The position numbers and the translations under genes were made by a program. A stretch of DNA of 64,000 bases, from contig CAYSUJ010000001.1 in assembly GCA_964434285.1 (NCBI GenBank), positions 304,564 through 368,563 on the forward strand, read 5' to 3'. The number at the start of each line of letters is the position of its first letter. The first letter of the stretch is position 1. The stretch is from an uncultured Candidatus Saccharibacteria bacterium. Lineage in GTDB: Bacteria > Patescibacteriota > Minisyncoccia > Phycocordibacterales > UBA2100. Shown in pieces: positions 17,402 to 61,620 of the stretch. Below the pieces are notes generated by a model. The model had not been told where the DNA came from, made no database searches, and was given only the letters and a program-made list of their open reading frames with translations.

Positions 17402-19402
17402 TTGTATCGCACTAATACACACAACGACCCAGCAGCCGCCCGTCCACATTCGACCATCATGTACAATTCCCGCATGTCCATGGAAGGTGGCAAAAACGGG
17501 CCCAAGTCACCGCGCCCTACAATTCTCAAAAGCTTCGGAGAATTACCGACTGCTGAAAGGCCGCATAGAGGTCGCGCACACAAAAAAGAGCGACAGGCTG
17601 TAAGAAACGAAAAAGCATTTTCCCTCAAACGACTGACACAAGAAGCATCTGTGTTTAAGAATGAAATAGACAAGGAACTCAAGTCTATTTTGAGACGAGC
17701 AGGTATCGAGAACGGAGAAGTTGCTATTGAACTCCGTCGAGAAGAGATGCAATTTGAGATAGAAATCGATGTCGCAGATGTTTCTGTACCTGATGCATTC
17801 GACCTCGAGTACGCCGCCGACAAGATAAGGAATCATATTGAAAGCGACCCGCGAAATCCGCATAACATGACTGTCCTAGTGCGTATTTCGCGTGCAAGAG
17901 ACAAGAATCGAGAAGCTCTGGAACGGGGTCGCCCGGCTCCGCACCAGAATGTCGAAGCGCGCCGTGAGATGCTTCGGAAAGAGCTGGAGAGAATGCACGA
18001 TCTACTCGATAAACTCGCTGAACAGCTGGAACGCGACGGGTTTATGCCAAAAAAGGAAAAGCGAGAAATCTATTTCAGGACGTCTCGAACAAAAGAGGGA
18101 CAAGAAATCTACGAGGTCGCAATCGATAATGAGGACGCTCCGCAGTCCATCCAGAACACTGTGCAACGCCTCGCACTGATCGAAACACGTCTCCTCACGA
18201 GTACGCGTGTGCTCGTACAAACTGCCGACGGCAAAGTCGTTATTGAAAGTCGAGAGCTAGGTTCTCGAGTAGAAGGCACACCAGAAAAAGCAGGCGTTGC
18301 GAAAGAAAGTCTCGACAATTTGAAGGCGGAGATGTTCCCTAAGCTCCGATCTCGCTTAAAGGAGTTCGCACTCGCGGTCGGCACTTCCCCACTCAGTACT
18401 GTGGAGGAAAAAATGCTCGCCCGCATCGTATCCGTTCAGGTGATTGAAGCACTCGACGATATTCTTCGTCTCGAGAAAAGCTCTGGAAAAAAGGGAAAGG
18501 AACAGGCGCGCACTAACATGATCGGAGGAACAAACCTCTTCAATCGTCTTCAAAAACTCGCCCTCATCGATGAAACAGGATGCCAGGTCAACCCGGAAAA
18601 TATCGCGAAACATATCGCACACTATTTAGAATCCGGATCTGATGCGAAAGACAATTTCGTCATCGCCCTCCACAACATCTCCGCTCGTTTCCAAAAAGTG
18701 AACCGCGAACGCGCTTTTCCCCGCATCCGAGAGGAATTAGAGAAGAAAATGACTGAGCTCGGTCTCCGATTGGAGAATGCCGATATCCTAGAGGAAGAGC
18801 CGACGCCCGAAACCCCGTGGCGTCTCGCTCTGGGTATTCACCCCGACGCAGACGGCGAGGGTGTACCCACAATTCTCCGCCGACCACTGGGACCAAACCC
18901 CAACCCGGTTGTCACGGCAGAGTTCGCAGCGCTGCTGCGTGATATGGATAGCATAAAACAAATAGAAGCAACTGGTGGCGAAGCACCATCCCCTGCCTCA
19001 GAAACGATTGTTCCCACCCTAGAGGAGTTTGCATCTGATATCGAATCATTAAGTGCATCTGCGGAAACTTCTCGCGCAACAGAGAGTGAAGACGAGCGCA
19101 CCGGGGAATTAGAAAACTTGGTTGCGGCGTTACAAACGCAATTAACAAAGGCGAACGAATCATTCGCTGCGGCGCAAAGTGAGATTGAGACTTTGCGCAC
19201 GTTGTCAGAACAATCAGGCGATGCCCTTATCGATGCTCATGAAAAAATCACGTCGCTAACTGAAGATCTACAGCGCACGGAAGCTCAAAGAGTGCTTCTT
19301 GACGCGTTCGCGAATGAAATAAAAAGAATATCGGAAGACCCAAGGGCAATTCTTGAGATGACAAAAATTGTTGTTGAAGCTTTACGAGAAATTGAAAAAT
19401 GA
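17402..19402 (+). CDS. large hypothetical protein, highly charged and coiled-coil-rich (up to 666 aa; start uncertain)
   Basis: Long ORF in a visibly AT-richer stretch, with no recognisable catalytic motif. Its TGA stop overlaps the ATG of the next gene (ATGA at 19399-19402). Confidence 0.55.
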   Translation: MYRTNTHNDPAAARPHSTIMYNSRMSMEGGKNGPKSPRPTILKSFGELPTAERPHRGRAHKKERQAVRNEKAFSLKRLTQEASVFKNEIDKELKSILRRAGIENGEVAIELRREEMQFEIEIDVADVSVPDAFDLEYAADKIRNHIESDPRNPHNMTVLVRISRARDKNREALERGRPAPHQNVEARREMLRKELERMHDLLDKLAEQLERDGFMPKKEKREIYFRTSRTKEGQEIYEVAIDNEDAPQSIQNTVQRLALIETRLLTSTRVLVQTADGKVVIESRELGSRVEGTPEKAGVAKESLDNLKAEMFPKLRSRLKEFALAVGTSPLSTVEEKMLARIVSVQVIEALDDILRLEKSSGKKGKEQARTNMIGGTNLFNRLQKLALIDETGCQVNPENIAKHIAHYLESGSDAKDNFVIALHNISARFQKVNRERAFPRIREELEKKMTELGLRLENADILEEEPTPETPWRLALGIHPDADGEGVPTILRRPLGPNPNPVVTAEFAALLRDMDSIKQIEATGGEAPSPASETIVPTLEEFASDIESLSASAETSRATESEDERTGELENLVAALQTQLTKANESFAAAQSEIETLRTLSEQSGDALIDAHEKITSLTEDLQRTEAQRVLLDAFANEIKRISEDPRAILEMTKIVVEALREIEK

Positions 19403-22400
19403 CCATGGAAAATCCATTCCTAAAGCGCATCGAAGACCATTTGGATAGAATGCGCCAAGTCACCGCAAAAAACATGCTATCACAGGCACCAGCTGCAGAA
19501 GTGAAGCCTGTACGGCCCACGAACCCTCTTTTTGCAAATGCTCGCCCGCGCTCAATACACGAACCAACTCCTATAGAAGCGGCTGGGTTAGCTCATGCAC
19601 GAGAACAAGTCCAAAGCGCTCTCGAGAGCATTGCTCAAGATCCTCATTTTGTCGCTGAAGCTCTTGATCGTGCCCGCGCGACAATCGGTGTTCTTCCGAA
19701 GGATGATACTTTCAACGCAACCCAATTTGAGCAATATGGTAAACAACTCTCAGAGTTCCTCGCGACAAGCGATACCTCAAGTGAGGAAAAGAAAGTAATG
19801 GTTGAAGAGTGCGTTGCAGCAATCGCGACCGGGCAAGGCCTCGATTCTTTGCCCGATAACCTTGCAGCTCGATTCTTAAGCTCGCAAGGCGCGCTCACGA
19901 AGGAGGTGCTCCGGGCAGAAATGACACTTGAGGCACAGGATGAGATAACGAAACCTAATCCGCACGCGTACGCGGCGCGAGCTGCGCTAGTGTTTGGTGC
20001 CGCAGCGGGGAGTCTTCTTCTTGAGGTGGGCACGACGAAAACTGCGCTCATTCAGCTTATTGATATCTACGATCCGCCTGGAATAAAACAACTCGCATCT
20101 TTAATCGCGTCTCAGCTTGAATCATTCGGCTACGACAAACTTTCATCCGTATCCGCAGCTCGTCTCGGAGTTGCTTCGACCATCGCAGGAGGTATCGGAG
20201 GAACTCTCCTCGCAACAAAAGGTCTTAAAAAGTTAGGTCCGAAGGGGAAGGCGGCGATGTACACATCTCTTGGCGCTTCTCTCGGTCTAGGCTATCTCGC
20301 TCTTCAAAATTTCGTCGCCGATAACGCCGCTGTCGCTGAAATGGGGAAAGTGATATCAAGTGAATACAAGCCCATTGCTGAACAAGGACTCTCGGCGAAA
20401 GAAAAGCGACTTGCTGCTATCGAGAAAGCAAAACAGGCAGTGCTCGCTACCCTCGAGCAAGAGAGGAACCGCCCGGGCGCCACGGGATACGGGCACTTTG
20501 CAGCGTTTCTTGATCAGGGCCTCTCAGGAAAATACGATGCAGGCTCGTTTAAATCAGGCGCACCCCAAAAACACGCCGCACTCCAGGAATCGCTTAAGAA
20601 CTTGCGAGTAAAATATTTCCGCTCCGATGCCTTGGGCAACGGTTTGTTATCACTCCTAACTGGTGTGGATAATATTGATCTCACTACTGCCCCAGAAAGC
20701 GCCAAAGCTTTGGTAGCTATTGGTGAGGCCGCGGGGCAAACTAATTTATGGAGTGGGCTTGGGAAAGTTTTAAATCCCGTTGGAGGTGTCACGACACCAA
20801 CTGCCATGTACCAACAAGCCTCGTCTGTAACAGAAGCTTTTCGCGTAATGTTGAAGGCAGATCAAGAAAAAATGAATCGTGTTGCTAGTGGTGCCTCGGA
20901 TTGGCTTGATACCATGATTAAGGCTGCGGGAACTCAAGGAGCGGATGCAAAGCTAATTGCCTCGTTGCGCGATCTCAAGGCAACACTGGGTGCAAACCTC
21001 CGACCACTCGACGCGAGCGAAGGGACGATTACGGCGGCACTCGGAAAGTTGCCCAAACCGACGGGCAAATGGGTCGTCAGAGTTGGAGACACGGAGTTCG
21101 CGCAAATGCAAAAGACACTTGAAGGTACATTCTTCCAAACCGTTTTTGGGTTTGACCTTGTTAAGGACGATTCGTATAGAGCCTTTTACCGCGGCGGAAT
21201 CATCGGACTCCTGTTACTCTTCTTCCTGACTATTAACTACGGCTCCAAGCTCGGGACGAATGCACTATATAAACGTCGTGAGAATGAATTTGAAGGATCC
21301 TTGCAAGATGGAAGTAACGAGCTGAATGAAAAAGAAAGCACGCTTGCCTCAGGAATCGCGCGCTTTCTATTCGAAGCAAACAAGGAATTCGTTACTGCAT
21401 CACGATCACCTGAGTTGGCCGCGGTATTACCCGAGTCCGTTCTAACCATGTACGTACGTAGACGGTTGCGCGAGATGTTTTTAGAGGAACAACAAGCTGA
21501 ATCGCCTGACGACCTTGTGAGCAAGAATGATTCGTGGTCATGGCTTGTTCACGGGATCGTCTTCACTCGGACCCCTGACGATGTGCGCACATTTCTAGCA
21601 TACGCTAATTGGCTTGAAAAATTGACGAAAGACCTCGATACATCAAAAGGTGGTGAAAAACTTCAAGCGGTTGTCGGCGCCATATTCCCATCCTTTGATG
21701 CAGTCGTAAAAGCACGGCACGAATCCCAAAAACCGGGCGTAGATAAACCCGAAAAAATACGAGCGTTTAAGAACGAGCTACGAAAGTTACGCAAACAACA
21801 ACTTGAGAGCCTATATATTGCGCTCTCGGATCGCATCAAGGTGATTGAAAGCACTGAAAGCGCAACAGCTGAGAAACCACTGCGAGGAACCCCTCGACTG
21901 CGGCTCGATATCGACAACACCCGAACGATCGTGGAACCAGAACTCGTAATGCGAGCACTTTCTCACAGCCAGCACTCAAGTGAGTTAGAAGAAATTAGCG
22001 AAACATTACGCTATATCGAAAGCTTGGGCATTAAGCCTGACGCGAGCACTCGAGATGATCTCCGCATTGGACGATTCGATCTCGGACCTGTATTTGCCAT
22101 CCGCAATGAACTCCAGAGAATACGAGTGGCGAGTGCACTGGGAATTCCGGACGCAACTGGACAAAAGGAGGATTTTGAGCGATTTGATGCATATATGGCA
22201 GAAATCGCTGTATCTCTCAGAGAAGCGCGCGATGCGTCGCTTAAACAAGAAGCACTCCTCAGCCCGTATACGCCTGTTTTTGATTGGGAAGAGGGCGCAA
22301 AAGGCAAATTTACCGTACGAATCAGTCTGCACCCCGATACTGAGAGAATTGAAGATCCCGTGGCATCAATCACCTTCCCGGGCACAATACCCGATTTCGC

Positions 22401-22989
22401 AAAACCCGACCCTGCAGTTGCATCAGAGACATTAAGGGAGTGGCTCAAGCCGGGTAGCGATGCGGTACGCGGGCTGGTAGCACAAGAACGAAATACCCAT
22501 ATTAAAAAAGAAATTTCGTCACGACTCGCGACGTTGCGAAAGAAGAATAATGGCTCTCCTTCCATGCGAATCGTCGAATCATCAAGACCCATAGTTCTCG
22601 AAGCCGAAGCTATCTCAATTCAACAAGAGCTCGTTGTACTTCAAGAAATCGCCCGCGAACAGGAGTCTTCGATTCCTCTGGCAAAGCGAGGACTCCCCAT
22701 CCCAGAAGATAAGTATCGCGCGTTTATCGATCCAAACGAGTACACCAGCAACGCTCGAACGCTGGCACAGCTACCGGAACGATTCGGGGATCTACAGTCG
22801 CGTGAATGGCCTGATCGCACGTCCATCACATATAACCCAAATCTACGATCATTTGAAGTGCATATTCAAAAACAAAGGCAATTTACACCAGCAACTTCGG
22901 ACGGCATGAAAAGTACATTACCCCTTACATACACCACAAGAGATGTTGAAGACCTTCTCGGTAAGTATGGTTCACTACAGGAGAAATAG
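19399..22989 (+). CDS. giant hypothetical protein (1196 aa) with about four hydrophobic segments
   Basis: Translationally coupled to the upstream ORF. Hydrophobic stretches include AALVFGAAAGSLLL, GVASTIAGGIGGTLLA, LGASLGLGYLALQNFVA and GGIIGLLLLFFLTINYG. No known domain recognised. Confidence 0.6.
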   Translation: MTMENPFLKRIEDHLDRMRQVTAKNMLSQAPAAEVKPVRPTNPLFANARPRSIHEPTPIEAAGLAHAREQVQSALESIAQDPHFVAEALDRARATIGVLPKDDTFNATQFEQYGKQLSEFLATSDTSSEEKKVMVEECVAAIATGQGLDSLPDNLAARFLSSQGALTKEVLRAEMTLEAQDEITKPNPHAYAARAALVFGAAAGSLLLEVGTTKTALIQLIDIYDPPGIKQLASLIASQLESFGYDKLSSVSAARLGVASTIAGGIGGTLLATKGLKKLGPKGKAAMYTSLGASLGLGYLALQNFVADNAAVAEMGKVISSEYKPIAEQGLSAKEKRLAAIEKAKQAVLATLEQERNRPGATGYGHFAAFLDQGLSGKYDAGSFKSGAPQKHAALQESLKNLRVKYFRSDALGNGLLSLLTGVDNIDLTTAPESAKALVAIGEAAGQTNLWSGLGKVLNPVGGVTTPTAMYQQASSVTEAFRVMLKADQEKMNRVASGASDWLDTMIKAAGTQGADAKLIASLRDLKATLGANLRPLDASEGTITAALGKLPKPTGKWVVRVGDTEFAQMQKTLEGTFFQTVFGFDLVKDDSYRAFYRGGIIGLLLLFFLTINYGSKLGTNALYKRRENEFEGSLQDGSNELNEKESTLASGIARFLFEANKEFVTASRSPELAAVLPESVLTMYVRRRLREMFLEEQQAESPDDLVSKNDSWSWLVHGIVFTRTPDDVRTFLAYANWLEKLTKDLDTSKGGEKLQAVVGAIFPSFDAVVKARHESQKPGVDKPEKIRAFKNELRKLRKQQLESLYIALSDRIKVIESTESATAEKPLRGTPRLRLDIDNTRTIVEPELVMRALSHSQHSSELEEISETLRYIESLGIKPDASTRDDLRIGRFDLGPVFAIRNELQRIRVASALGIPDATGQKEDFERFDAYMAEIAVSLREARDASLKQEALLSPYTPVFDWEEGAKGKFTVRISLHPDTERIEDPVASITFPGTIPDFAKPDPAVASETLREWLKPGSDAVRGLVAQERNTHIKKEISSRLATLRKKNNGSPSMRIVESSRPIVLEAEAISIQQELVVLQEIAREQESSIPLAKRGLPIPEDKYRAFIDPNEYTSNARTLAQLPERFGDLQSREWPDRTSITYNPNLRSFEVHIQKQRQFTPATSDGMKSTLPLTYTTRDVEDLLGKYGSLQEK

Positions 22990-23000
22990 CCTCACAAACA

Positions 23001-23033
23001 AACAACGGCATCGTGCCGTTGTTGTTGATTATT
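23001..23033 (+). terminator. intrinsic terminator after the 1196-aa gene
   Basis: aacaacggca-tcg-tgccgttgtt followed by gttgattatt. Confidence 0.55.
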
Positions 23034-23234
23034 CTACCCGCTCCCAAAGAGTGCAAACAAAATAACACCGAAGACTACGGCAATCCAAGCAAAAGTGATG
23101 ACCCTACCTATGACACCTACTAAGTGCCGTGCTTTTTGCACGTCGCGCTGCTGTACCATTTGATGACTCCGTTTCTCCGGGGCGGGAACTTCTTTGTACA
23201 TCCTAGTTGCTACAACCCCACTGTCAACTACCAT
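23034..23234 (-). CDS. possible small membrane protein (66 aa)
   Basis: C-terminal hydrophobic helix IAVVFGVILFALF; overlaps the rnc stop by 7 nt; weak support. Confidence 0.2.
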   Translation of the reverse strand: MVVDSGVVATRMYKEVPAPEKRSHQMVQQRDVQKARHLVGVIGRVITFAWIAVVFGVILFALFGSG

Positions 23235-23914
23235 CCCCGTGTCGCAAGTGCCTTACCCGCCGCATCCTGTTCTGCCTCTTGTTTGGACTTTCCTTCGCCT
23301 AATGCTTGCTTCTCTTTGCCGAGAAAGACTGCAACCACAAATCGCTTGTCGTGATCGGGACCGCTTTGGTCACTCAACTCGTACGTAGGAGTGACTCCGA
23401 TTTTGTCTTGCGCCACTTCCTGCAACCGACTCTTCGCATCTTGCCAGAGACGCTTCTCGACAACCTCATCGGTTTTATGGAAGAGCTGAGCCTCAATAAA
23501 TGCGTATGATGCCTCATAGCCCTGATCGAGATAGATGGCACCAATCACCGCCTCAAAAGCGTTTGCAAGAATAATCTGGCGGGCGCGCCCAGTATCTTTT
23601 GCCTCACCACGCGAGAGAAGGAGAAAATCGTTCATGCCGAGCTTTGTCGCAGCATCAGAAATTGATTGCGTATTCACAAGAGCGGCGCGAAGTGAGGTGA
23701 GCTCACCCTCTGGTTTCTGCGGATATTTCTTATACAGAAACTCCGTCACAACGAGCTCCAACACCGCATCGCCCAAAAATTCCAAGCGCTCATTATGCTC
23801 GCGCCCCGGGGCACGATTTTCATTGAGGTAGGATCTATGGGTAAACGCTGTCTCTAACAATCGCTTATCCTTAAATCCAACACTGATTTTTTGTTCAAAT
23901 GGACCAAAGTCCAT
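23228..23914 (-). CDS. rnc: ribonuclease III
   Basis: ERLEFLGDAVLELVVTEFLY catalytic signature plus a C-terminal dsRBD. Confidence 0.9.
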   Translation of the reverse strand: MDFGPFEQKISVGFKDKRLLETAFTHRSYLNENRAPGREHNERLEFLGDAVLELVVTEFLYKKYPQKPEGELTSLRAALVNTQSISDAATKLGMNDFLLLSRGEAKDTGRARQIILANAFEAVIGAIYLDQGYEASYAFIEAQLFHKTDEVVEKRLWQDAKSRLQEVAQDKIGVTPTYELSDQSGPDHDKRFVVAVFLGKEKQALGEGKSKQEAEQDAAGKALATRGW

Positions 23915-23929
23915 GGCGGTACCTTACTA

Positions 23930-24847
23930 TTATTTTGCTTTCTGCGCCAGCACATTAATGGCAGGAATAATGATTTTCAGCGTATCGTCGTAAAAATTTA
24001 AAGAACCCACCTGCGAGAGCGGGAACCATTGCGCGTCGTCGAGACCACCAGATGAGCCGAGTGTGATATCTGCAAAGGGAGACTCTGCAAGGAAGTAGGT
24101 GACGCGTTTGCGCTTTTTCCCCCCTTTGATTTCCGAGTCATTCGCCGTGTATTCATTCACACCAAGTTGTTGCTTGATTTCGATATCAAGTCCAAGCTCT
24201 TCTTTAATTGCGCGTCTCGTTCCCTCTTCAAGCGATTCGCCTTCTCGAATCTTTCCCTTCGATATCGTCCAGTGACCAAAAATGTCGTGCACAAACGCAA
24301 GGTACGTCTCCCCTTCATGCTTCGCGAAGACAACCGCACCCGCGAGATGCTCGACTGGCATCTTGCCAATGCCCTGCCCGCCAGGGCCGGACTTACGCGC
24401 ACTTCCCTCATTTTTTCCCGGTTCCCCGAGCTCAATATAAACGGCGCCGAGGACGCCGTTTATAAAGCGCCCCGAAGAGTTTGATCCGAAATTTTTTGCG
24501 AGCTCAATGGCCTCATTGATGGCGACCTTGGCCGGCACCTGCGTTCTGTCAGCAAAAAGAAGTTCGCAGAGTCCGAGGCGGAGAATGTTGCGGTCTATCG
24601 CAGCTATTTTTTCGAGCGGCCATTCGGGTGCCGCTTTTTCTATCACAGTATCGATCTCTTTCTGTTTCGCAATGACGGTCTTCAGTAATTCCGTCATGAA
24701 GGGCATGTCGTTGTCTCGAGCACCAAATTCTTTTGAGTACTCGGCGAGCCGCTGCGAACCCTCTTCGAGATTCATTGCATTTTGAGCGGAGTCTCTTTCA
24801 AAGAGAACCTGAAGAACAACCGAGCGTGCGAGGTGGCGATTGGCCAT
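23930..24847 (-). CDS. nusB: NusB antitermination factor fused to a C-terminal Nudix hydrolase domain
   Basis: N-terminal 145 aa NusB (RHLARSVVLQVLFE...VAINEAIELAKNFG...FINGVLG). A Gly-rich linker leads to a Nudix box GKIREGESLEEGTRRAIKEELGL. Confidence 0.75.
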   Translation of the reverse strand: MANRHLARSVVLQVLFERDSAQNAMNLEEGSQRLAEYSKEFGARDNDMPFMTELLKTVIAKQKEIDTVIEKAAPEWPLEKIAAIDRNILRLGLCELLFADRTQVPAKVAINEAIELAKNFGSNSSGRFINGVLGAVYIELGEPGKNEGSARKSGPGGQGIGKMPVEHLAGAVVFAKHEGETYLAFVHDIFGHWTISKGKIREGESLEEGTRRAIKEELGLDIEIKQQLGVNEYTANDSEIKGGKKRKRVTYFLAESPFADITLGSSGGLDDAQWFPLSQVGSLNFYDDTLKIIIPAINVLAQKAK

Positions 24848-24858
24848 ACGCTAGTGAG

Positions 24859-24888
24859 CCATAAAGAACAAAGAGCCCATATGGGCTC
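24859..24888 (-). terminator. terminator hairpin after rpmF (perfect palindrome tgagcccatatgggctca)
   Basis: The stem-loop is followed on the - strand by UUUGUUCUUUAUGG. Confidence 0.5.
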
Positions 24889-24916
24889 ATCGTACCACGT
24901 AGTGCGCAAGGCAAAC

Positions 24917-25180
24917 CTACTCGGCTGTGGATTCCTTGGGTGTTGCCTGACCACTTGCCTTCAGTGCCTTTTCGCGGCGCTTCATGCGACGCGCCGTGCG
25001 CTTTGCACGAGCTTCGACGTCAATAACCTGCTTACCGCGGTACATACCCGTGATCGGATTTGCGCGATGACTGAGAAATGAGTTCCCCGCCGCATCCTTG
25101 GAGATATGCGTGGAAGACAAAGCGTGGTGACTTCGGCGTTTTGCTGTTTGCGACCGGTTTCGGCGCATTCGGACTACCAT
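24917..25180 (-). CDS. rpmF: 50S ribosomal protein L32. The likely start is the ATG at 25180; the ORF track extends to 25243
   Basis: RRSHHAL and GMYRGKQVI match the L32 signatures RRSHDAL and GYYRGRKVI; C-terminal basic extension; TATAAT and RBS upstream. Confidence 0.7.
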   Translation of the reverse strand: MVVRMRRNRSQTAKRRSHHALSSTHISKDAAGNSFLSHRANPITGMYRGKQVIDVEARAKRTARRMKRREKALKASGQATPKESTAE

Positions 25181-25243
25181 GGAGCCATTATAACCTAAAA
25201 CATCCCCAAAGCAAACGGCGGCCTTGGGGGCCGCCGAGTTCAC

Positions 25244-25498
25244 CTACGAGCGAGAAACGCTGGAATTCACCACCCTCTCCCGTACCCTGAGTGCCAAATC
25301 GCCCCCACTGTATTTTGAGAGGAAATGGCTTGCGCCATTACAAAGCTCACCTTTGCCAATTTGGCAGAAACCACCAGCACCCTTTTTGGTTTTAGCGTTT
25401 CGACTGCAAAAGGCGCAGATCGCTGGCTGAACCTCGCTTGGCGACATAACCTCGCCGAACGTGCTTCTCAGCTTTCTGACAACACATTTGTTATTCAC
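25244..25498 (-). CDS. hypothetical Cys-containing small protein upstream of rpmF (possibly a DUF177/YceD remnant)
   Basis: 84 aa with CxxC-like spacing (CAFC...C...C). This position is often occupied by yceD. Weak. Confidence 0.2.
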   Translation of the reverse strand: MNNKCVVRKLRSTFGEVMSPSEVQPAICAFCSRNAKTKKGAGGFCQIGKGELCNGASHFLSKYSGGDLALRVRERVVNSSVSRS

Positions 25499-25555
25499 AA
25501 TACCCTCCGCGGATTAGTGTTGCAGACTCCACCCTACACCCATATTAGCCCCTAA

Positions 25556-26158
25556 TCAAGCGTAGGCTGTCAAGAACGTTTTGCGGTGTATGAGGGGTAG
25601 TAGGCCATGCTGTCGGATAGCCAGCGTGTGGGCAGCAGTGCCATATCCCTTATGCTGCGCGAAGCCGTATCGGTTATGCGCCTCGGAGAGCTCCTCCATA
25701 TGCATGTCGCGCGTCACCTTCGCAATCATCGAAGCGAACGATATGGCGGGAATCGTCTCGTCGCCGCGGACGAATGATTCCTGCTCCCACTCCGATGAAA
25801 CTGAAAGCCCCGCGTCCAAGAGCACCTTCACACGCGCGGGACCAATACCCAGCCGCTGCACCGCTATCGCCGCAGCCTCGCGCGCCGCGTTCGCGATACC
25901 AATCATATCGATGACTTCTGCCTCGACGAGTGCATGCGCGTGGCGCAAGCGCCCATGATTCACTATGGCGCTATACAACACCTGTCGCTGTTGCGCAGAA
26001 AGTTGTTTTGAATCGCGAAGTTTGGGCACGCCGCGCTTGGTGATAAGTGCGAACACTTCACACCAGTCGAAATCTGCTGGATAGAGAACGGCACCGACAC
26101 ACACAGGACCGGCGAGTGCACCCCGCCCAGCCTCATCAACGCCGATGTACCACTGCAC
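25556..26158 (-). CDS. rnhB: ribonuclease HII. The ORF track extends to a TTG at 26206; the likely start is nearer VQWYIGVDEAGRG
   Basis: IGVDEAGRGALAGPV active-site motif; RNase H fold length. Confidence 0.85.
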   Translation of the reverse strand: MQWYIGVDEAGRGALAGPVCVGAVLYPADFDWCEVFALITKRGVPKLRDSKQLSAQQRQVLYSAIVNHGRLRHAHALVEAEVIDMIGIANAAREAAAIAVQRLGIGPARVKVLLDAGLSVSSEWEQESFVRGDETIPAISFASMIAKVTRDMHMEELSEAHNRYGFAQHKGYGTAAHTLAIRQHGLLPLIHRKTFLTAYA

Positions 26159-26205
26159 CTCCCAACAATAGCAACGGGAAGCACCCCATGACTGAGAAAT
26201 CCCCA

Positions 26206-26921
26206 ACCATGTAGGACACGCCGTGTCCTACATTTCGATCCTTATACTCTCCTCTGTAAGTGAAGGCGTATTGATCAGGGCTGCAATTTCGATGCGTTGG
26301 TTTTTTGCGCTCCCTAGGAGCGCTTTTAGAACACGATTATCGATGACTGAAGGGAAATTTCTCTCACCCATATAATCAAGATAACTACTCCATCGATACT
26401 CATGGAGGTACGCAAGAGCATCCGACACCTTTTTTACATTTCCCTGTCTCCATTCGGGCATCGAAAAATCCAGTGGGTTAAGGTGTATGTAGTATGGTAT
26501 GTAGTTGAAATGCGCATCGCGCTGAAGGTGTATTTTTTTAAAGACACCCTGCCAAAGCACGCCACTACGCGAATACTTTTCGTTGAAATATTTTGCATAT
26601 CCCATGCCTAACTTTTGAGCAAAACGAGAAACATACACCGCATCGTCATCGACCGGAGAAAGAAGGAGGTGGTAATGATTGTCCATCAGACACCATGCAT
26701 GAATGTGCACGAGGCGTTTATGATTTCTATCTCTACGCTCTCGCACATGTCTATGGGCCACTATTTTCTGATTATTAAGTTCATACAAGTCGCTTACGAA
26801 TCGAGCCCGATCCCCATCGTCGAGCACAATTTTTCTTTTTTCTACGCCCCTGTTGAGAATGTGATAAAAATCCATGATTCACTTAACTGTACCATGTAGG
26901 ACACGCCGTGTCCTACATGGT
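26206..26921. mobile_element. IS200/IS605-like (RAYT-like) unit: a Y1 HUH transposase gene bounded by identical perfect palindromes
   Basis: accatgtaggacacgccgtgtcctacat at 26206-26233 and the same sequence extended to a 31-bp palindrome at 26891-26921. The tnp stop codon lies inside the left palindrome. Confidence 0.7.
26228..26875 (-). CDS. Y1 (HUH) tyrosine transposase, IS200/RAYT family
   Basis: FYHILNRG N-terminus, HUH motif HAWCLMDNHYHLLL, and a downstream Tyr-containing YRWSSY region; 215 aa. Confidence 0.75.
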   Translation of the reverse strand: MDFYHILNRGVEKRKIVLDDGDRARFVSDLYELNNQKIVAHRHVRERRDRNHKRLVHIHAWCLMDNHYHLLLSPVDDDAVYVSRFAQKLGMGYAKYFNEKYSRSGVLWQGVFKKIHLQRDAHFNYIPYYIHLNPLDFSMPEWRQGNVKKVSDALAYLHEYRWSSYLDYMGERNFPSVIDNRVLKALLGSAKNQRIEIAALINTPSLTEESIRIEM

Positions 26922-60948: not shown

Positions 60949-61040
60949 GGAGAGGTGGCTGAGTGGTCGAAAGCGGCACGGTGCTAACGTGTTAGGCGGG
61001 TAAAACTGTCTCCAGGGTTCGAATCCCTGCCTCTCCGCCA
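60949..61040 (+). tRNA. tRNA-Ser (anticodon GCU) with a long variable arm and encoded CCA
   Basis: GGAGAGG acceptor stem, anticodon loop GUGCUAA, about 20-nt variable arm, GGTTCGAATCC T-arm, CCA. Confidence 0.85.
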
Positions 61041-61101: not shown

Positions 61102-61620
61102 ATGAACAGCATTCAAACAACAGACGAATATCTCGACTTGGTTGATTAACACGATCAAGTTATTGGGAAGAAAAAGCGATCGGAAGTATATGCCGAACAT
61201 CTGTCGAATTTTCGAGTTGTAAATGCGTTTGTTGTAAATTCCAAAGGCGAGATTTGGATACCAAGACGAGCTGCGAATAAAAGAATCTTCCCGCTCTGTT
61301 TAGACATGAGCATGGGAGGCCATGTAGAAAGTGGAGAAACTTACGAACAGACGCTTAAGCGCGAGACACAAGAAGAACTCAATATTAATACTGATCAGGC
61401 TCAAGTGCGTCTGCTCGGACATCTCACTCCTTAAAAAGATGGAGTCTCTGCTTTTATGAATGTGTACGAAATTAAGGTGGAAGAAGCTCCTGATTACAAC
61501 AAAGACGATTTTATCGAGTATTTTTGGCTCGCACCAAAAGCCTTATATGAAAGAATTGCTCAGGGAGAAAAAACCAAGGGAGACCTACCGACCCTCGTAA
61601 AAACCTTTTATGATGTCTAA
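61102..61620 (+). pseudogene. Nudix hydrolase pseudogene (in-frame TAA at 61147-61149 plus a frameshift near 61430)
   Basis: Nudix box MGGHVESGETYEQTLKRETQEELN is readable. Both halves are under 60 aa, so absent from the ORF track. The region is AT-rich. Confidence 0.55.

Follow-up and report, generated by a model that had tools for sequence, protein, structure and literature searches.

A 64,000-nucleotide stretch of contig CAYSUJ010000001.1, referred to below as the window, encodes on its minus strand a 305-residue protein in which the transcription antitermination factor NusB is joined to a Nudix domain (23930-24847, stop codon included). Nearly all bacteria have NusB, as a rule a bare RNA-binding adaptor, which binds BoxA RNA and NusE in the complex involved in rRNA antitermination and maturation. 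The fusion is covalent, real and conserved. Comparative analyses indicate that it is ancient and general in the Parcubacteria/Paceibacteria of the Candidate Phyla Radiation (CPR), and that the residues of its Nudix pocket are more constrained than the catalytic residues, specifically in the fused state. The composite interpretation that we favour, tentatively and at a little short of an even chance, is that of a NusB-tethered module binding nucleotides or RNA 5' ends, for which hydrolysis would be optional. Parcubacteria form a very large and poorly understood radiation, and their NusB has permanently gained a Nudix domain. Of the relatives of this domain that have been characterised, the closest one edits the 5' ends of RNA.

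Reading frame and distribution of the fusion

The open reading frame (ORF) of the fusion starts with an ATG at 24847-24845 and ends with a TAA at 23932-23930, and the window sequence holds no internal stop between them. Only two domains are detected by Pfam in the product, NusB (PF01029; residues 7-136, E = 7.5e-33, 114 bits for a cut-off of 23.1) and NUDIX (PF00293; residues 188-281, E = 2.6e-13, 50.6 bits for a cut-off of 21.1). The NCBIfam NusB equivalog model TIGR01951 scores the protein at 121.2 bits, above its cut-off of 88.35. With both Pfam domains above their cut-offs in one uninterrupted ORF, the proposal of an earlier note on this DNA that NusB is joined in-frame to a Nudix domain is borne out, and the linker GKNEGSARKSGPGGQGIGK and the Nudix box GKIREGESLEEGTRRAIKEELGL that it quoted match the actual letters.

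The same architecture recurs among relatives. In a survey with one genome per species, at least 508 loci carried a relative, and synteny and reading frames were counted at the best 80 of them. At these 80 loci, residues 1 to 300-305 are covered in a single continuous frame at 60-83% identity, which settles the question raised in the earlier note of a frameshift or stop at the junction. Proteins were also searched with three queries, the window protein, a profile of 37 divergent fusions and the very divergent member P0250, and the best 120 matches were listed for each. Both the NusB and the NUDIX Pfam domains are present in 120 of the 120 listed matches of each search.

An artefact, in which a frameshift, a missed stop or a chimeric assembly would have merged two separate genes, has in our judgement a negligible probability. 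It is ruled out by the intact frame across independent assemblies, both at the best 80 of the at least 508 loci and in all 360 listed protein clusters. The observation that speaks for it comes from one contig of a metagenome-assembled genome (L081, 542-1459; JACCDV010735530.1), on which the two halves are called as separate genes. However, this split comes down to one in-frame TAA at the codon of the invariant Tyr137, the frame being otherwise continuous and the gene order rpmF-nusB-nudix-rnc being kept. The TAA may represent a nonsense mutation, a sequencing error or a read-through site. As L081 was the sole 'split' case found, it was also considered as an unfused ancestral gene pair and rejected, being the fusion frame with a single TAA. 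An internal translation start at Met163 is likewise unsupported: Shine-Dalgarno-like motifs are rare at both sites, lying upstream of M1 in 2 of 68 cases and of M163 in 11 of 68, and Met163 is not conserved in the alignment of divergent fusions.

The source names of the fusions comprise Candidatus Kaiserbacteria, which is the window's own group, Nomura-, Giovannoni-, Niyogi-, Vogel- and Tagabacteria, Paceibacter and a 'Parcubacteria group bacterium GW2011' genome. It is because the matches span these named lineages that we consider the fusion to be general in the Parcubacteria/Paceibacteria. When the Nudix half was compared exhaustively with the representatives of 50%-identity clusters, 1048 matches were obtained. 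Among the best 150 of these, a NusB domain is also present in 60, including 36 full-length fusions, which reach down to approximately 26% identity in the Nudix half. At source, the fusion proteins are labelled 'transcription antitermination factor NusB' only, and such labels hide the extra domain from annotation-based studies. Literature searches combining NusB with Nudix, NusB with Parcubacteria and Nudix with Candidate Phyla Radiation did not retrieve a description of this architecture. As far as could be found, the NusB-Nudix combination is thus apparently undescribed, although each of its elements has a conceptual precedent. Of note, many species-representative records that carry a Kaiserbacteria-type gene at 65-81% identity (L003, L012, L013, L017 and others) are titled 'uncultured Candidatus Saccharibacteria', which is probably a labelling artefact of third-party assemblies.

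Domains, pocket and catalytic box

The protein comprises a NusB domain of seven helices (residues 1-140; 24428-24847), a Gly/Lys/Pro-rich linker of variable length and sequence (residues 141-162; 24362-24427) and a Nudix domain (residues 163-305; 23933-24361), all on the minus strand. The first is delimited by PF01029, TIGR01951, AlphaFold2 and Foldseek, the linker by model confidence, substitution rates and alignment, and the last by PF00293, a profile search of the PDB and Foldseek. An AlphaFold2 model built on a 100-sequence alignment has a mean predicted local distance difference test score (pLDDT) of 86. It shows a NusB domain at residues 5-140 (pLDDT ~90) and an alpha/beta Nudix domain at residues 165-304, with pLDDT values below 50 for linker residues 143-161 and a predicted template modelling score (pTM) of 0.48 for the whole model. 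According to the model, the two domains are folded and independent, with no fixed mutual orientation predicted. Pairwise ratios of non-synonymous to synonymous substitution rates (dN/dS) across 81 species are ~0.07 for NusB, ~0.12 for Nudix and ~0.49 for the linker, these values being rough since dS is saturated. They indicate that both domains are under purifying selection, and that the linker is relaxed, as a tether would be.

The start of the linker nevertheless departs from this relaxed pattern. A GEPGK motif (residues 141-145; 24413-24427, minus strand), recognised by alignment, directly follows the last NusB helix. In the 100-sequence alignment, G144 reaches at least 90% conservation and the other four residues (G141, E142, P143, K145) never vary; G-E-P is also invariant in a further alignment. 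The motif is absent from the C-termini of the Aquifex and Thermotoga maritima NusB proteins in our alignments, and a binding partner may recognise it as a short linear motif.

As for the NusB half, its best Foldseek match is the Aquifex NusB of the NusB-NusE-BoxA complex (3R2C_B; TM 0.87, rmsd 2.0 Å), and 1TZV and 1EYV are also matched. In the Aquifex complex, F122 stacks on U8 of BoxA and E81 reads the same nucleotide, and Y18 of the E. coli protein belongs to the NusE interface (PMC3177189). F128 of the window protein aligns to Aquifex F122 and is invariant in 37 of 37 divergent fusions, D85 aligns to E81 and is at least 90% conserved, and F16 aligns to E. coli Y18. We conclude from these alignments that the N-terminal half is a bona fide NusB and probably a working one, with predicted binding to NusE/S10 and BoxA. 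Its identification in the earlier note as a clear NusB holds, given the TIGR01951 score, the all-helical fold and the retained BoxA and NusE residues. The accompanying statement that NusB is normally a stand-alone protein needs qualifying, as the rRNA methyltransferase RsmB begins with a NusB-like domain, and RsmB models also match in the NCBIfam scan.

The Nudix half appears from profile and structure searches to belong to the group of diadenosine polyphosphate (ApnA) hydrolases and aq_158. When a profile of the 37 fused Nudix domains was compared with the PDB, the best match was the Aquifex Ap4A hydrolase 3I7U (E = 6e-21), followed by CT771 (9e-16), the Ap6A hydrolase Ndx1 (4e-14), the human Ap4A hydrolase NUDT2 (~1e-12), the Caenorhabditis elegans Ap4A hydrolase (1KT9; ~9e-12) and Dcp2 decapping enzymes (~1e-10). 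Foldseek also ranks Aquifex aq_158 (3I7U) highest, with a TM of 0.87 and an rmsd of 2.5 Å, before mycobacterial MutT1/Rv2985, Ndx1, CT771 and NUDT2. In 2026, aq_158 was reported to convert RNA 5' ends bearing triphosphate, diphosphate, m7G, NAD, FAD, Np4 or sugar caps to monophosphate in vitro, with the E51A variant as the inactive control (PMC13145063). E217 of the window protein aligns to that residue, E51, and to E50 of Ndx1.

The ligand pocket of this subfamily is retained in the fusions. The specificity Tyr of ApnA hydrolases, Y87 of the human enzyme in 1XSC numbering, contacts the adenine (PMC5389931). Y233 aligns to human Y87, and Y286 aligns to the C-terminal aromatic residue of ApnA hydrolases. 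In NUDT2 and in the C. elegans enzyme, the counterpart of Y286 completes the adenine-stacking pair. Among 37 divergent full-length representatives, W193, T194, K197, Y251, W274 and Y286 are each found in 36, D188 in 35 and Y233 in 33, with Phe in its place in three more. In the three larger sets, D188, W193, K197, Y233, W274 and Y286 are present in 120/120, 120/120 and 119/119 sequences, and T194 in 116 of the 119 of the third set. On a neighbour-joining tree of 81 species, the pocket residues show no change at all.

The catalytic box has a different history. In the window copy it spans residues 198-220 (24188-24256, minus strand), as defined by sequence and alignments, and reads G-x5-E-x7-R-A-I-x-E-E-x-G-L. 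Compared with the consensus GX5EX7REUXEEXGU, G198, E204, R212, E216, E217, G219 and L220 are in place, and the sole box residue lost is the Glu of the 'RE' pair, replaced by Ala213 (codon GCA, 24209-24211, minus strand). The box is therefore incomplete, and the earlier note's concern that it might lack catalytic Glu residues on careful alignment proves justified for the 'RE' Glu but not for E204, E216 and E217. In E. coli RppH, whose motif covers residues 38-60, the E53A variant is inactive in vitro and does not complement in vivo (PMC6061791). RppH E53 occupies the 'RE' position and corresponds to Ala213, as does human NUDT2 E58 (chain numbering in the profile alignment), and 4IJX is, by its entry title, an E58A mutant.

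In the family, the residue at the 'RE' Glu site is K, E, A, S, V or I. Among the 81 species-level relatives, position 213 is occupied by Lys in 42, Glu in 34, Thr in two, Ala in one and Ser in one. It underwent at least nine independent changes on the neighbour-joining tree, for a median of four at Nudix-domain sites, while E217 never changed and E204, R212 and E216 changed two to three times each. Counted as 90%-identity clusters, 79 of 120 close relatives have a canonical box, as do 65 of 120 profile matches and 75 of 119 P0250-like matches (54-66%). Among the 37 divergent full-length representatives, only six keep all four box Glu residues, and 20 have two or fewer. A canonical box is present in 8 of 51 NusB-fused versus 24 of 32 unfused representatives (Fisher p = 1e-7, uncorrected for phylogeny), and several of the unfused exceptions resemble fragments of fusions. 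In P0250 and its relatives (63-65% identity, including the GW2011 genome), box erosion is a stable trait. The model of P0250 again shows NusB, linker and Nudix, with a pLDDT of 87, and pTM values range from 0.48 to 0.50 across the two models.

Stand-alone canonical-box relatives were considered as a clue to the origin of the fusion, and they turned out to be uninformative. P0160 (L083, 4001-4453; logan SRR22388351_56690) lies among integrase, DNA methylase and replication-like genes, which suggests that members of the Nudix subfamily also travel on mobile elements, and P0178 and P0232 have no nusB nearby on their contigs of ~1 kb. The window itself holds a second Nudix ORF on the plus strand (61102-61620), after a tRNA-Ser gene (60949-61040). 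It has a canonical RE..EE box and two in-frame stop codons, in line with its earlier designation as a pseudogene, sequencing errors being the other explanation. The hidden Markov model (HMM) of the NusB-linked Nudix family does not match this ORF.

Gene neighbourhood

The fusion gene is part of a conserved cluster of four genes, rnhB-rpmF-nusB::nudix-rnc, all on the minus strand. The gene for RNase HII, rnhB (25556-26206; Pfam RNase_HII), has a homologue at 61 of the 80 syntenic loci. Ribosomal protein L32 is encoded by rpmF (24917-25180; Ribosomal_L32p), which is directly upstream of the fusion and has a homologue at 74 of these loci. RNase III is encoded by rnc (23228-23914; Ribonucleas_3_3 and dsrm), with a homologue at 78. 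Downstream of the fusion gene, rnc follows after just 15 nt, and the two are probably co-transcribed. E. coli nusB mutants are cold-sensitive and defective in rRNA maturation, and mutations in rnc suppress both defects (PMC4807359). In light of this genetic link, the adjacency of the fusion and rnc unites two partners in pre-rRNA processing.

A terminator-like hairpin followed by a T-tract lies in the gap between rpmF and the fusion gene (24863-24888, minus strand), and a bidirectional one between rnc and a convergent ORF of 1196 codons (23001-23023, both strands), each recognised by consensus match alone. The region 22800-26400 is enriched in terminator-like sites, with 17 compared with a mean of 4.0 in shuffled sequence. 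The convergent ORF (19399-22989) overlaps another (17402-19402), both being on the plus strand and running toward the rnc end of the cluster. Their products of 1196 and 666 residues have no Pfam match, and no homologues were detected at the syntenic loci. Between rnhB and dnaE lies an IS200-like Y1 transposase ORF (26228-26875, minus strand), which is probably a strain-specific insertion, as a homologue is found at only 6 of the 80 syntenic loci. The rest of the window is housekeeping chromosome, with rpoD, dnaG, rpoBC, smc, dnaE, gyrB, pheT, a release factor gene and pilus genes. No second NusB-like ORF is present within the 64 kb.

Candidate functions and known systems

In the composite interpretation, selection would maintain the capture of a purine-nucleoside polyphosphate ligand by the Nudix domain. 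The most likely ligand would be a 5' end with a triphosphate or an Np4 cap, that of the nascent pre-rRNA leader already held by NusB via BoxA, because the partner is NusB, the neighbour is RNase III and the closest characterised relative is an RNA 5'-end pyrophosphatase. The protein would have a two-point grip on the leader near the site of RNase III action. Hydrolysis to a 5' monophosphate would be an ancestral activity, optional for the family and kept by lineages whose box is canonical, and weak or absent turnover is predicted for the window copy because Ala213 corresponds to RppH-E53A. Several observations weigh against this interpretation. More than half of the fusions in well-sampled clades (54-66%) keep a fully canonical box. 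In the window's own clade E204, R212, E216 and E217 are near-invariant, a pattern equally expected of an active enzyme that depends on metal and can do without the 'RE' Glu. The comparison of fused and unfused boxes is one of cluster representatives, uncorrected for phylogeny, and the dN/dS values are only rough owing to dS saturation. Finally, the 5'-end target derives only from homology with aq_158 and from the NusB context, and free ApnA or ATP would fit the pocket equally well.

The main rival is closest to the suggestion of the earlier note that the fusion would put an RppH-like activity on the antitermination complex. According to it, an active pyrophosphohydrolase is delivered by NusB and converts the 5'-triphosphate or capped ends of nascent RNA to monophosphate, catalysis being what is selected and the 'RE' Glu not needed. 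The in vitro activity of aq_158, the closest solved homologue, is consistent with this proposal, as are the absence of change at E217 and the few changes at E204, R212 and E216 in 81 species, the frequency of the canonical box in sampled fusions and the adjoining rnc gene. However, the window copy carries the equivalent of a substitution that inactivates RppH in vitro and in vivo, at the very position substituted in NUDT2 E58A (4IJX). Many lineages have lost two to four box Glu residues while keeping the domain, its fold and its pocket, and the RppH equivalog scores are far below the cut-offs: the best model (PRK00714/TIGR02705) gives 20 bits for a cut-off of 118, which places the protein outside that family. 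On balance we regard an active RppH-like enzyme as a rather unlikely account. The suggestion of RppH-like activity is thus not supported as it was worded, while the link to RNA 5' ends that it implied is plausible, given that aq_158 strips 5' triphosphates and many caps in vitro. Alternatively, the Nudix domain could bind a nucleotide signal in free form, for instance Ap4A/ApnA, ATP or an alarmone of that kind, and in some lineages hydrolyse it, thereby modulating NusB or locally removing non-canonical initiating nucleotides. The analogy is with NrtR-type regulators, in which a degenerate Nudix domain senses the effector of a nucleic acid-binding protein. This proposal would fit the ApnA substrates that are classical for the subfamily and the conservation of the pocket alongside eroded catalytic residues. 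Foldseek and profile searches also match the Nudix domains of NrtR and AraR, and non-enzymatic Nudix domains are documented in transcription regulation (PMC5389931). Nevertheless, allosteric control of NusB is hard to reconcile with domains that share no predicted interface and are joined by a disordered linker (pTM 0.48-0.50), and ApnA signalling is not known in these organisms; we consider a free-nucleotide sensor to be unlikely.

Still less probable, in our view, is that the Nudix domain serves only structure or protein interaction within a Nus complex specific to Parcubacteria, operating without a relevant ligand. The precedent for it is SuhB of E. coli, an enzyme-fold partner of the Nus factors that probably does not act primarily as a phosphatase (PMC4807359), and the eroded box and the invariant GEPGK motif of the linker point the same way. 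Yet the invariant residues are precisely those aligned to the adenine-stacking and phosphate-binding residues of ApnA hydrolases, and sequence comparison does not reveal a new surface patch. Within the binding module that we favour, one may go further and propose that the Nudix domain reads 5' ends instead of acting as an enzyme, clamping the triphosphate or Np4 terminus of nascent pre-rRNA while NusB-NusE holds BoxA. We put this stronger version forward as a speculation with a low probability of being correct. If it were true, the leader would be fixed at two points on the elongating polymerase, with the 16S processing stem organised for the co-encoded RNase III. The fusion would then be the first elongation or antitermination factor known to sense the chemical state of an RNA 5' end, and a natural series from active enzyme to pseudo-enzyme would exist inside one orthologous family. 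More generally, were the domain to bind or process nascent rRNA at its 5' end, 5'-end chemistry would be tied to Nus-dependent folding and RNase III processing. To our knowledge, no such link is known in model bacteria. Whatever the ligand, hundreds of orthologues that range from a canonical to a fully eroded box around an invariant pocket offer a good means of telling binding and catalysis apart in Nudix proteins.

Comparison with known systems places both halves in familiar company. With Aquifex aeolicus NusB (3R2C), the window protein shares the all-helical fold, the U8-stacking Phe, the U8-reading acidic residue and the NusE-interface aromatic residue. Unlike it, the window protein adds a C-terminal linker, a Nudix domain of 143 residues and a GEPGK motif unseen in solved NusB proteins. 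The Nudix domain is colinear over its whole length with aq_158, also called 'Omnivore RNA pyrophosphatase' (3I7U/3I7V), T. thermophilus Ndx1, Chlamydia CT771, human NUDT2 and mycobacterial MutT1/Rv2985, including the WT/S-x-x-KG motif, the specificity Tyr and the C-terminal aromatic residue. It differs from ApnA hydrolases by its fusion to NusB and by an 'RE' Glu that is unconstrained in the family and replaced by Ala in the window copy, and many of its homologues are without most of the catalytic Glu residues. The fold and the proposed RNA 5' polyphosphate target are common to RppH (E. coli NudH and the Bacillus subtilis YtkD type), from which the equivalog scores and the natural E53A equivalent set the window protein apart. 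As for Dcp2 (6AM0, 5J3T), it has the same order of helical domain, hinge and Nudix domain. Foldseek alignments cover 260-267 columns at an rmsd of 13-15 Å, and the structures are not superposable; the parallel is architectural only.

Other parallels concern the association of an enzyme fold with a nucleic acid-binding factor. Like SuhB in the E. coli rrn antitermination complex, the Nudix domain would be an enzyme fold serving Nus factors in rRNA maturation. In contrast, SuhB is a separate polypeptide with an inositol monophosphatase fold and has no sequence or fold kinship to the Nudix domain. NrtR and AraR also join a Nudix domain with a degenerate box and a retained pocket to a nucleic acid-binding transcription factor, as many fused homologues do, the window copy being one box residue short. 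In the fusion, however, the partner is the RNA-binding NusB rather than a winged-helix DNA binder, only NusB and NUDIX having been detected, the Nudix domain is of the ApnA type rather than the ADP-ribose type, and about half of the fusions keep the canonical box. RsmB/Sun, the 16S rRNA methyltransferase, offers a precedent for a NusB-fold RNA-binding module that covalently delivers an enzyme domain to rRNA. In RsmB, a NusB-like paralogue is combined with a methyltransferase, whereas the window protein combines the orthologous NusB with a Nudix domain.

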